Source: Hydrolagus affinis
Lineage: Eukaryota
Length of the DNA stretch: 64,000 nucleotides
Assembly: GCA_012026655.1 (NCBI GenBank)
Contig: JAAILG010001332.1
Span: 1 to 64,000 of the forward strand
Reading direction: 5' to 3'
Shown in pieces: positions 188 to 24,111 of this stretch. Every line of letters starts with the position of its first letter. The first letter of the stretch is position 1. The position numbers and the translations under genes are program-made. The notes beneath the pieces are model-generated. The model had not been told where the DNA came from and ran no database searches. It worked only from the letters and a program-made list of their open reading frames with translations.

Positions 188-783
188 GGCATTCCAAATG
201 AGCATTGTGTTGTAAATCAGCGTTGTGTTCCAAGGATGCATTGTCTGCCAAACGAGAATTGTGTTCTGAACATGCATTGCGTTCCAAACGAGCATTGGGT
301 TCCAAACAAGCATTACGTTCTAAACGAGCATTCTGTTCTCAACGGTTGTTGTGTTCTTAATCATCGTGTTCTGAATCCGCATTGTGTTCCAACATAGCAT
401 TGTGTTCCAAACAAGCATTACATTCTAAACTGGTATTGTGTTCTAAACGGATGTTGTGTTCCAAACACACACTGTGTTCTGAATCCGCATTGTGGGACCT
501 GAAACGTTGACTCACTTTCCTTTCTCCATGGATGCTGCCTGACCTATTCTAAACTAATATTCTGTTCTAAACAAGAGTTGTGTTCCAAACGTGTATTGTT
601 TTCTACAGAGGTATTGTGTTCTAATTCAGCATTGTGTTCTAAATGACTATGGTGTTCTAAACGAGCATTGTATTCCAAATGAGTATTGTGTTATAAACTA
701 GCGTCGTGTTCTAAATCAGCATTGTGTTCGAAACAAGCATCATGTTCTAAACTAGCATTGCATTCCCAAAGAGCATTGTATTG
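188..783. repeat. Degenerate 18-bp minisatellite (consensus ~GCATTGTGTTCYAAACGA), about 30 units
   Basis: Successive 18-mers gcattgtgttgtaaatca, gcgttgtgttccaaggat, gcattgtctgccaaacga, gaattgtgttctgaacat, gcattgcgttccaaacga. The 6-aa periodicity is visible in ORF 131..397. Confidence 0.92.
495..546 (+). mobile_element. 52-bp internal fragment of the Penelope-like/hammerhead element inside the minisatellite
   Basis: ggacctgaaacgttgactcactttcctttctccatggatgctgcctgacct closely matches 23758-23807 and the reverse complement of 15469-15520. Confidence 0.88.
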
Positions 784-15310: not shown

Positions 15311-15398
15311 AGGACTTCCTCCAGACACGAAATGTGTTTTACAAATGTAATTTTGTTGTTGTAGAATACAGATAAACGCTAGCTAGTCAGATTAATGA

Positions 15399-15554
15399 GA
15401 CAAAAACGCAAAATACTGCAGATGCTGGAAATCTTGAAACAAAAACAGAAGTCGCAGGGAACACTCAGCAGATCAGGCAGCATCTATGGAGAAAGGAAAG
15501 TGAGTCAACGTTTCAGGTCCACGGATTTGCATTCTGACAAAGGGTCACTGAAAT
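15399..15554 (-). mobile_element. Penelope-like element terminus with inverted 5' piece
   Basis: 15399-15524 is the reverse complement of 23755-23876. It is followed at once by plus-strand ttctgacaaagggtcactgaaat (15532-15554), the missing 5' half of the hammerhead-like motif. Confidence 0.8.
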
Positions 15555-15674: not shown

Positions 15675-17456
15675 TCACGTCAGGAGGACGTCCCAAGGCG
15701 CTGCACAGGAGGTGTGTGACCCGAGCTGGGAGGGGAGTGTTCGGGAGGGGGTAAGAAACGTAGGGGAGGTCGAAGAATTAGGGGGGGAACAGAAGGCATG
15801 GTCGAAAAGGAAAGTCTTCAAACCGGCCTTGAAAGAGGAAAGGGAGGAAACAAGGCGGAGGGATTGGGGGATGGAATTCCAAAGGGTGGGAGTGGAAAAA
15901 CTGAAGGCCCGACCTCCGATGGTGGGGCGGTTCGGGCGGGGGGCTTGGAGCAAGCCAAGTCCTGCTGAACGGAGGGTCCAGGTGGGCTTGTAGGGGGAGA
16001 GTAGGTCGGAAAGATAGGGCGGGGCAAGGCTGTGTAAGGCCTTGAAGGTGAGGACGAGGATCTTGAACTCGATCCTCTGGGGGATGGGGAGCCAATGGAG
16101 ACGGGCGAGGGTGGGGGTTATGTGGTCGCGGAGGCGGGTGCGGGATACTACACAGGCTGCAGAGTTTTGGATGATCTGCAGCCTGTGAATGGAGGAGCTG
16201 GGGAGGCCGACAAGGAGAGAGTTTCCATAGTCCAGCCGTGAGGTGATGTACGCGTGCACGAGTGTTTCGGCAGCGTGGGGAGTGAGATAGTTGCGGAGCC
16301 TGGCAATGTTGCGCAGGTGGAAATAGGCAGTGCCGGTCAAGGCGCGGATGTGGGGGAGGAAGGAGAGTTTGGGGTCGAACGTGATGCCGAGGTTCCTGAC
16401 TGGCTTTGTGGGTTGGAGAGTACAGCCTTGGATGTTGATGCTGGCAGCGCCCGATGTGCGGAGGCGCTGGCTTGAGCCAATCAGGAGGGCCTCGGTCTTG
16501 CTTACGTTCAATTGGAGGAAATTGTCCCTCGTCCAGGACTCGATGTCGGACAAACATGCTGTCAGAACATCGATGGTCTGGGGGTTGAGGGATGAGGCGG
16601 AGAGGTACTGCTGGGTGTCGTCTGCATACATGTGGAAGTTTACACCATGTTTGCGGATGACATTGCCCAGAGGGAGCATGTATATGGTGAAAAGGAGGGG
16701 GCCAAGGACAGAGCCTTGGGGAACGCCATGAGAGACTATACGGTGGTTTGAGGAAAAGCTATTGGAGGATATGAAATGTAGGCGGTGGGTTAGGTAGGAG
16801 TGGAACCATTCAAGGACTGTGCCTTGAAGGTTGAGGTGGGAAGAAAGGCGTTGGAGGAGGATAGTGTGATCGACTGTGTCGAACGCAGCAGACAAATCAA
16901 GGAGGACGAGGAGGTAGAGGGAACCCTGGTCACAGGCGGTTAGGATGTCATTAGTAACCTTGACCAGGGCAGTTTCCGTGCTGTGAGCAGGGCGGAAACC
17001 TGATTGGAGGGGTTCAAGGAGTGAGTGAGTTGAGAGGAAAGAGCGGAGCTGGGAGGCAACCACTCTTTCAAGGACCTTAGAAAGGAACGGGAGGTTGGAG
17101 ATGNNNNNNNNNNNNNNNNNNNNNNNNNNNNNNNNNNNNNNNNNNNNNNNNNNNNNNNNNNNNNNNNNNNNNNNNNNNNNNNNNNNNNNNNNNNNNNNNN
17201 NNNCAGAGATGAACGGGGCCAGGAGGTGGAGCTGGGTGCGGAGGAGGGGGGTGGGGATGGGGTCCAGTGAACACGTGGTGGGTTTCATGGAAGTGATTGT
17301 TCTTGTGACTGAGGACGGGGAGGTGGGGGTGAAAGTGTAAAAAGGAGGGTGGGTGGGGGGTGGAGTAACGGATGGAAGGGCGGAGGTGGGGGAAAGATGG
17401 GGGGAGGAAACCGCAGAATGGATTCTCTCGATTTTGGACTCGAGGAAGTCCAGCAT
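15675..17456 (-). CDS. Partial ORF2 of L2 LINE: reverse transcriptase domain and C-terminal region; endonuclease absent
   Basis: Non-LTR RT motifs ISNLPFLSKVLE, QSGFRPAHSTETAL, LLDLSAAFDTVDH, GVPQGSVLGPLLF, YADD and RNLG. L2-type C-terminus SRLDY..HITPTLARLHWLP..RAFS..LWN. The ORF spans a 100-N gap and its Met start is not the true start. Confidence 0.93.
   Translation of the reverse strand: MLDFLESKIERIHSAVSSPHLSPTSALPSVTPPPTHPPFYTFTPTSPSSVTRTITSMKPTTCSLDPIPTPLLRTQLHLLAPFISXXXXXXXXXXXXXXXXXXXXXXXXXXXXXXXXXXISNLPFLSKVLERVVASQLRSFLSTHSLLEPLQSGFRPAHSTETALVKVTNDILTACDQGSLYLLVLLDLSAAFDTVDHTILLQRLSSHLNLQGTVLEWFHSYLTHRLHFISSNSFSSNHRIVSHGVPQGSVLGPLLFTIYMLPLGNVIRKHGVNFHMYADDTQQYLSASSLNPQTIDVLTACLSDIESWTRDNFLQLNVSKTEALLIGSSQRLRTSGAASINIQGCTLQPTKPVRNLGITFDPKLSFLPHIRALTGTAYFHLRNIARLRNYLTPHAAETLVHAYITSRLDYGNSLLVGLPSSSIHRLQIIQNSAACVVSRTRLRDHITPTLARLHWLPIPQRIEFKILVLTFKALHSLAPPYLSDLLSPYKPTWTLRSAGLGLLQAPRPNRPTIGGRAFSFSTPTLWNSIPQSLRLVSSLSSFKAGLKTFLFDHAFCSPPNSSTSPTFLTPSRTLPSQLGSHTSCAAPWDVLLT
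17104..17203. other. Assembly gap (100 N)
   Basis: Run of N. Confidence 1.
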
Positions 17457-18164
17457 CTCCTCACAACGTGCATTAGAGGAGAGGATCTGCGAAGCGAGGC
17501 GGGGGAGGGGGTGGGGGGGCGGAGGAGCTGGTTGCTCCCTACAAACATGCCCGCTACTTCTGCTCCCAAGGCCTGTTCCATGTCTCCCGACCCACCCACC
17601 CCACCATCGGTGTTCGAGCCTTCAGCCACTCTGCCCCTAACCTCTGGAATTGCATCCCGAATCCCTGCAACTCACCCACTCCCTGGCCTCCTTCTAGTGC
17701 CACCTCAAGACTCTCCTCTTCGACGGTCCCATCGGCCACCAAAAATCCTGTCATTTCACTCCACTCTCCCCGATTCCGACCCCAGCTCAGATCTAAAACA
17801 TTGAGTGTCTAGCGCCTTGGGATGTCCTCCTGACTGAAAGGCACCATCTAAATGTAATTTGGTGGTGGTGCATGTGTTAATGGGTCTATATTACACCAAT
17901 TCACTCTGACATTAGAATGGAAATTCACATTGAATTCTTTTATTTTGGTCAGCTGGGTGTATGACCCATGCGGAAACCCACAAGAAGCTGTAGAGTATCC
18001 AAGCCAAAATGGGAGACTCATGCATCCCACCAATACATAAAACCTCCCAAAATAATTAAAGTCAATGAATTATTCACATTTTCCTTTATTTTGGTGACCA
18101 ATGAGATAGATCCAATTGTCATTATTCATATGTTTACTATACAAATGAATAGCAAACGTGAAGA

Positions 18165-18480
18165 CCTGTAGCTCAGTGGTTAGAGCACTCGCCTTACAAG
18201 CGTGGGACCTGTGTTCGAATCTAGGCAGGGAGAATCCATGGGCAAGATTCCTTACTCTACATGTCTAATAATAATCCCTCAAATAAAATAATAATAAATT
18301 GGTCATTTTAATCCACGACTGTTTGTGGGACACTGCTGTGCACAATTGGCTGCTGCGTTTCGTCCACAAATATACAGCCAATTCTCTTTACAGTATATTC
18401 TGTGAAGTGCTTTGAGACATCTAGAAGACATGAAAAGCACAATATCAAATGCAACTATTGTTATATATTATTATTATTAC
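18165..18480 (+). mobile_element. Full-length tRNA-Deu-L2 SINE
   Basis: Pol III A box tagctcagtgg, B box gttcgaatc, Deu-like core gctgtgcacaattggctgctgcgtttc, 3' hairpin and (ATT)n tail. Confidence 0.93.
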
Positions 18481-23086: not shown

Positions 23087-23371
23087 GGAGTCCTGTAGTT
23101 CAGTGGTTAGAGTACTCACCTTACAATCGAGAGACCTGGGTTCGAATCTAGGCTGGTTGAAAACTTGGGCAAGTTTATTTACTCCACTCGCTTGATAATA
23201 ATCCCTAAAACAAAATTGGGTAATTTCACTCCAAAACTGTTTGTGGGACACTGCTGTGCGCAATTGGCTGCTGCGTTTCAGCCACATATAAACAGCCAAT
23301 TCACTTTTAGTTTTGTTTAAACCCACCCCTTTTTGTTTCACCTTTTGTATTACCTCTTTAATGGAACACTA

Positions 23372-23612
23372 TGGAACTCCATCCCGCAATCCCTTCACCT
23401 CACCTCCTCCTATTCCTCCTTCAAGGCCCTTCTCAAGACCTTCCTCTTCGACCGTGCCTTCTGCTCCCCTCCTAACTCTTCCCCCTCTCCTATTCCCCTT
23501 CCCCCTACTCTGACCATCCCGCTGCTCAGGTCCCGACCTGATTGTTCAGCGCCTTGGGATGTTCTCCCGACATGAAAGGTGCTCTAGAAATGTAATTTTG
23601 TTGTTGTTGTTT
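23372..23612 (+). mobile_element. L2 LINE 3' end inserted in the Penelope-like element
   Basis: Translates as WNSIPQSLHLTSSYSSFKALLKTFLFDRAFCSPPNSS, close to the young L2 C-terminus, with hairpin and (TGT)n. Confidence 0.92.
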
Positions 23613-23738
23613 AACCCATCAATTAACACATTTTCTCCTTTGTCTTCTTTTTCTGTCTTCTTTGTCTCCTATATCTTCCTTGTTCTGCCTCCCCATCTCT
23701 AACTTGTCCTTAAAAACCTCTCCCTCCCAACATGCCCC

Positions 23739-23774
23739 AGTTCTGACGAAGCTCATGCACCCGAAACGTTGACT
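23739..23774 (+). ncRNA. Minimal type-I hammerhead ribozyme motif (stem II degenerate in this copy)
   Basis: AGTT-CTGACGA-a-gctcatgcaccc-GAAA-CG-T-T-GACT: catalytic boxes CUGANGA and GAAA, stem I AGUU/GACU, and palindromic ACGU stem III. Confidence 0.65.
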
Positions 23775-23935
23775 CACTTTCCTTTCTCCATGGATGCTGT
23801 CTGACCTGCTGAGTTTTCCCAGCAACTTCTGTTTTTGTTTCAGATTTCCAGCATCTGCAGTATTTTGTGTTTTGTCACTTTACAGTATATTCTGTGAAGC
23901 ATCTAGAAGACGTGAAAGCGCTGTATCAAATGCAA

Positions 23936-24111
23936 AAACAACAAAATTACATGTATAGTGCGCCTTTCACATCGGGAGGACGTCTGAAAGCGCTGAACAG
24001 TCAGAGGTCCCTACCAACCTGCCCACTCCCTCTGTTCAGCAGGCTCCGGTCTGCTCCGGTCTGCTCCATGTCTCCCGCCCGACTCGCCCTACCATCGGTG
24101 GCCAGGCTTTC
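23936..24111 (-). mobile_element. Short L2 insertion with 5' inversion
   Basis: 23936-24007 is an antisense L2 tail and hairpin. 24008-24111 is sense upstream L2 sequence (PYQP..LHVSRPTRPTIGGQAF). Confidence 0.8.

Follow-up and report, generated by a model that had tools for sequence, protein, structure and literature searches.

The insert that splits a tRNA-derived SINE at positions 23308–23874 of the window (the whole 64,000-nucleotide stretch of Hydrolagus affinis DNA analysed here) is best explained, and with considerable confidence, as what a 5' truncation has left of an endonuclease-bearing Penelope-like element (PLE), likely a Neptune, namely its end with 3' UTR, minimal hammerhead and tail. 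It landed in the SINE and was later broken by an L2-like piece, its ribozyme is predicted to be dead, and the explanation taken as a whole includes an inferred mechanism of insertion. The window copy itself is ordinary. The statistics of its family are more informative, and the family's fixed starts, stops and landing sites likely record how PLEs insert.

The insert, its host and its parent element

The 5' part of the host SINE, a repeat with many copies in the window, lies on the forward strand at 23089–23307, its tRNA-like head (23089–23160) scoring 27.9 bits against the Rfam tRNA model, slightly below the gathering score. It ends in the heptamer TCACTTT (23301–23307), which returns at 23875–23881 as the opening of the segment holding the 3' part of the SINE (23875–23937, forward). 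Since unbroken SINE copies in the window, such as that at 18333–18454, hold the heptamer once, the repeat is a true 7-bp target duplication, in line with the initial annotation, and corresponds to the first half of the 14-nt duplication usual at this SINE site. This SINE is very dense in the window, occupying about 26 places, and its 3' part is near-palindromic around the insertion hot spot described below.

Within the insert, all of it on the forward strand, a 5'-truncated piece of PLE 3' UTR or pseudo-LTR (23308–23361) aligns to the family majority, and the same sequence lies 3' of the GIY-YIG open reading frame (ORF) in longer copies. It is interrupted at 23362–23609 by a later nested insertion of 248 bp, the 3' piece of an abundant repeat flanked by duplicated TTTAA (23357–23361 and 23610–23614); the nesting had been annotated correctly, and its L2 label is kept as a presumption in calling the piece L2-like. 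The sequence of events is therefore SINE, then PLE insert, then L2-like piece. Elsewhere, a G-rich region at 16001–18000 (53% G+C, strongly skewed) probably represents a long stretch of L2-like sequence in minus orientation. Beyond the nested piece the insert resumes as pyrimidine-rich 3' UTR or pseudo-LTR (23610–23738), whose genomic copies are 88–94% identical, and continues with a minimal type-I hammerhead (23739–23774) and a predicted hairpin (GGATGCTG...CAGCATCT, 23792–23856). By its fold the hairpin spans the first family 3' end (about 23841) and is a candidate protein-binding or reverse transcription (RT) start signal, and an optional tail of ~33 nt (23842–23874) terminates at the second family 3' end. 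Without the nested piece the insert measures 314 bp rather than the ~325 bp first given, and it is ORF-less as claimed, the longest ATG-started frame being 45 aa. Recurrence of its 3' part was also borne out, by a second fragment of the family at 497–545 (forward) and a third at 15393–15521 (minus), the latter accompanied by a 16-nt oppositely oriented hammerhead piece at 15532–15547. The second fragment is contained in an 18-bp satellite (192–779) that has about 32 copies and a higher-order period of 105 bp.

Comparison with the 29 best other copies revealed a sharp 3' end and an upstream homology staggered from 38 to 707 nt, the longest reaching coding sequence. Three successive upstream searches led through the GIY-YIG, RT and N-terminal regions and, in front of these, back to the terminal sequence. 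Of 30 GIY-YIG-region loci (one being the query, two duplicates, and one stopping at a contig edge), 28 carry the terminal sequence of the window insert downstream in the same orientation, 26 of them within 200 bp. The insert thus comes from an autonomous-type PLE, whose truncated end it is; in longer copies it is continuous with an RT and GIY-YIG ORF, so that the linked ORF which the initial annotation had proposed to look for was found and the Penelope-like origin it had suggested is upheld. Candidates from first-look searches, which are not copy numbers, drop from 3' to 5' (4319, 2099, 424 and 108).

One locus, L121, is arranged as repeat fragment, ORF, and UTR with hammerhead, its period being 3.07 kb; L123 and L128 show a co-linear arrangement, and in L121, L127 and L128 the pseudo-LTR also occurs upstream of the ORF, as a partial tandem. 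A 487-aa open stretch in L121 matches the Pfam RVT_1 model with an E-value of 1.5e-6 at 28.6 bits (cut-off 29.6), and contains DKG (in an adjacent frame), YIDD, a CX4CX2C linker and the GIY-YIG region, CCHH accompanying the linker in family translations. An N-terminal stretch of 325 aa had no Pfam match, the family's own GIY-YIG piece had none at E<=0.1, and a PDB sequence search returned no match; a homologue at 41% identity does lie above the Pfam GIY-YIG cut-off. The best named protein relatives come from rays, a skate and a shark. All copies examined are decayed, none with an unbroken ORF. According to the accessible text of PMC8557442, a CX2-5CxxC linker and CCHH are common to Neptune and Nematis and absent from Poseidon and Hydra. 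The family fits Neptune or Nematis by its DKG, CX4CX2C linker and CCHH, a placement by motifs, and probably belongs to Neptune, which is favoured over Nematis because Neptune and Poseidon are the only clades found in vertebrates in the accessible part of bioRxiv 10.64898/2026.07.22.740005. In polyA single-cell reads from one sample, a library that cannot show starts, cuts or circles, coverage of the terminal piece is deep on both strands and that of the ORF thin. About 80% of reads over the terminal piece continue into unlike sequence, with no pile-up of molecule beginnings or ends; one query used in this mapping, L002, has a stem II deletion of its own.

The hammerhead in the window copy and in the family

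The window hammerhead includes the boxes CTGACGA (23743–23749) and GAAA (23763–23766), and its predicted cut after 23770 agrees with that annotated at first. Both catalytic boxes at exact spacing have 3,208 genomic matches, compared with none for a reversed control, and the intact 32-mer has 313 matches (control, none), so that the motif is not a chance occurrence. The family majority keeps the CUGAnGA and GAAA cores, helices I and II and a palindromic stem III, bearing out the assignment as a minimal type-I hammerhead. An Rfam scan of the 64-kb window gave no match to hammerhead families at E<=5; as this leaves the window motif itself unmatched, Rfam does not test the minimal form.

While the cores, stem I and the palindromic AACGTT are intact in the window copy, stem II, a perfect 5 bp in the family majority, is broken by one deletion and three substitutions (four changes in 13 nt). 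Given these changes and a weak predicted fold (−1.8 versus −10.8 kcal/mol for the family majority), the ribozyme of this copy is likely inactive, as had been surmised. The 13-nt stem II (23750–23762) holds four of the nine differences from the family majority over the 267 nt compared, a clustered damage that is possibly one event. Among 61 copies spanning this region, all five stem II pairs are kept in 25, and CG is kept as well in 14. Two stem II subfamilies, GGGTC-GTG-GACCC and GGGTT-GTA-GACCC, are each linked to the ORF and, judged by eye in the first 100 of the 3,208 matches, differ by C-G to U-G only.

Copy ends, target sites and a proposed course of insertion

Copy ends were mapped with a 34-mer that lies 3' of the ribozyme; of its 692 exact matches the first 100 were taken, leaving 93 arms after exclusion of seven rows present in earlier sets. 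The 5' starts of 59 arms fall between −7 and +1 of CTGA (37 of them at −5 to −3), with 15 further upstream and 19 inside, and the same 5' edge appeared in a separate set of 30 copies chosen by intact core. A minor second cluster at −14/−15 (four of the 93: L165, L169, L184, L243) is possibly a second start. None of the 93 starts exactly at the cut site (+29), and the copies do not look derived from ribozyme-cut RNA; one inverted arm begins exactly at +29 and four arms at +26/+27, and there may be a small class of cut-derived copies. The hammerhead is kept in the family, yet it seems to leave little or no mark on the copies. At the 5' edge the sequence CCAGTTC resembles an initiator, and some copies repeat their first few bases there, as would be expected if RT ran off the RNA end and then jumped.

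In the same 93 arms the 3' ends lie at two places, near +100 and +133, the intervening stretch of about 33 nt being the optional tail; a likely ATG follows about 40 nt past it. Adjacent inverted pairs number 35 among these copies, and in 32 of the 35 one arm is short and the other tailed (p 2e-7 versus free choice). The resolved target duplications (41, in a search covering lengths of 11–18 bp) measure 14 bp in 21 cases, 13 bp in nine, 15 bp in six and 16 bp in five, with an A+T content of 72% versus 60% in the flanks. Outside the nicks, a motif [AC]AA, chosen after the profile had been viewed, occupies 30 of 76 half-sites from 38 non-SINE events (19 left, 11 right) versus a background of 14%.

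The SINE is a preferred landing site. One 17-nt stretch of it hosts the ends of eight of the 93 arms, where 0.64 would be expected from SINE density in the window, and exact SINE–PLE junctions number 55 forward and 15 reverse genome-wide, versus none at a control site (a SINE 13-mer equally frequent in the window), the forward count being aided by a 3-nt overlap of element and target. In 20 of the forward junctions, examined with their flanks, the 5' ends vary, and the left half of the SINE stops at positions 235–238 in 13; in 12 of the reverse junctions it stops at position 222 in five, the remainder of both samples being shorter or without resolvable ends. These two sets of SINE-half ends indicate that the same two nicks, about 14–15 nt apart, serve both orientations. 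That the junction is one amplified chimera was considered and dropped, as 5' ends and orientations vary. The window copy sits in this hot spot, its 7-bp duplication being half the family mode of 14 bp.

By the mechanism that we consider likely, the element protein would nick the two strands of a loosely symmetric site at a distance of about 14 nt, and reverse transcription would begin within element RNA left uncut, at either of two positions that lie about 100 and 133 nt from the hammerhead start. Priming from both nicks, with one start at each position, would produce a head-to-head pair. With the transcript 5' end at the first bases of hammerhead stem I, RT copying the upstream repeat of the RNA would run off that end and yield stubs, which is likely why most copies measure about 100–135 nt. 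Longer copies would originate from the downstream repeat and then truncate; the window copy, reaching about 180 nt beyond the stubs in the upstream direction, is likely one of these, its synthesis having broken off early. A more far-reaching reading, somewhat less likely than not, takes the copies as a fossil record of PLE insertion. In it, transcription would start at the very first base of stem I, the cutting agent would be a protein dimer that opens a symmetric site with the stagger fixed at 14 nt, and each nick would be passed to a different RT start on uncut RNA.

The fixed 5' edge might instead reflect RNA processing (a splice acceptor or other cut) or an RT stop rather than the start of transcription, a reading that we consider unlikely while taking it seriously. 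An AG does occupy −4/−3 after a long pyrimidine tract, and helix I marks the end of an intron in D. virilis (PMC4209133, accessible text), whereas in L195, L217, L228, L236 and L237 the target duplication adjoins the start directly, with no shared first exon, and a stop caused by structure would be expected on the 3' side of the hammerhead.

It is quite improbable that the stubs of 100–135 nt, hammerhead plus hairpin, form a SINE-like non-autonomous family with an internal promoter, mobilized in trans by PLE protein. Both ends are common to most copies, stubs far outnumber ORF-bearing copies, and trans action is possible for PLE terminal repeats (PMC3846280, as far as its accessible text goes); the subfamily marks, however, including both stem II variants, are common to stubs and ORF-linked copies, the ORF-bearing L104, L106 and L112 begin at the same 5' edge as the stubs, so that one full-length transcript explains both, and the window copy is not a stub. 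The separate short non-coding, retrozyme-like family envisaged by the initial annotation gives way likewise, its 5' ends being truncations, its sequence continuous with the ORF, and the tandem copies it had proposed to look for being absent from 120 loci. A non-LTR retrozyme, in which paired hammerheads cut tandem units into circular RNA for reverse transcription and insertion, can hardly account for the family: although the palindromic stem III permits a predicted dimer (cofold −28.3 kcal/mol) and two same-strand hammerheads lie 1.12 kb (L125) and 0.75 kb (L126) apart, such a pair occurs within a locus in only one of the 120 loci (927 bp apart, from separate insertions), starts at the cut site are missing as described above, two-hammerhead loci differ in their junctions and include pieces of the ORF, the hammerhead is of the minimal and not of the canonical type given for retrozymes in the accessible text of PMC7229834, and the window copy is solo.

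Some insertions are composite, with hammerhead, tail, the first 0.5–1 kb of the ORF and a second hammerhead (L125 386–1606; L126 606–1491; L101, L105, L107, L113), and with their spacing of 0.75–1.1 kb they are candidates for dimer cleavage. Their origin as spliced derivatives was dropped because the junctions vary. Loci L104, L106, L109 and L110 have a common upstream flank and are therefore not independent; as the 14-bp duplication of L125 (the same locus as L104) shows insertion into another repeat, a single insertion was later multiplied together with its host.

Relation to known systems and significance

Much of what the window copy displays is already in print. The accessible text of PMC4209133, PMC8557442 and PMC3846280 describes hammerheads of the minimal form in PLE repeats as well as solo fragments, pairs in inverted orientation and tails, and the under-described system first supposed here is not one, as minimal hammerheads in PLE terminal repeats and dispersed solo fragments have been published since 2014 (PMC4209133). 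The minimal hammerheads of metazoan PLE pseudo-LTRs (Cervera & De la Pena 2014, PMC4209133), as far as the available portion of that paper describes them, share with the present family a 4-bp helix I, an extra base before helix II, a G-C closing pair, a palindromic 15.2–16.2 without loop 3, thousands of solo copies linked to truncated PLEs, and close opposite-strand pairs. They differ in helix II, which has 5 bp and a 3-nt loop here and is longer, at 7–8 bp, in Schistosoma, and the pile-up of copy starts at helix I found here is not reported in that portion. Canonical endonuclease-bearing PLEs of the Neptune and Nematis clades (Craig et al. 2021, PMC8557442; Arkhipova et al. 2013, PMC3846280; accessible parts of both) are alike in their C-terminal GIY-YIG with CCHH, CX2-5CxxC linker and DKG, and in partial tandems, an inverted 5'-truncated copy and a 30–40-bp tail on one arm. 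Their duplications, in contrast, measure 8–10 bp in the Adineta examples versus a peak at 14 bp here, and they target microsatellites, whereas the present family uses a loosely symmetric site and a SINE.

A mechanistic counterpart in these sources is PAc, a Poseidon element of Anolis, for which the accessible text of Frangieh et al. 2024 (PMC11167929) reports cutting of both strands in vitro, two internal RT starts that bound the tail, uncut RNA as the main template and absence of reads ending at the ribozyme cut. The Hydrolagus family would be alike in two RT starts bounding the tail, two-strand cutting and an uncut template, and none of its 93 measured copies starts at the cut. It differs in that the PAc start codon lies inside the hammerhead, while here the likely ATG is past the tail, and in the linker finger, present in the ORF here and absent from Poseidon (PMC11167929, PMC8557442). 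Non-LTR retrozymes, reported in one chondrichthyan in the available parts of PMC7229834 and bioRxiv 10.64898/2026.07.22.740005, are alike in their origin from PLE terminal repeats and in a unit near 300 bp; they are defined there by tandem units with at least two complete hammerheads and by circular RNA, in contrast to the solo, truncated and broken window insert. A literature search found no paper on the family, its fixed start or its SINE hot spot, although Repbase, subscription papers or supplements may name the family, and a search for hammerhead and Penelope in shark or Callorhinchus gave nothing relevant.

What PLE hammerheads do, and how insertions combining an inverted repeat with a tail arise, is called unclear in the accessible text of PMC8557442 and PMC11167929, and to these questions the family supplies exact, testable coordinates for the 5' start, the two RT starts and the stagger of 14 nt, together with a natural target that is defined. 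A retrotransposon that cuts both strands predictably would, if this is confirmed, also be of interest to builders of insertion tools. If the more far-reaching reading of the insertion record is true, this PLE preys on one SINE because it finds a near-ideal site there, and the hammerhead would act as a structure at the 5' terminus or as a switch at a later stage, and would not be what makes the template.
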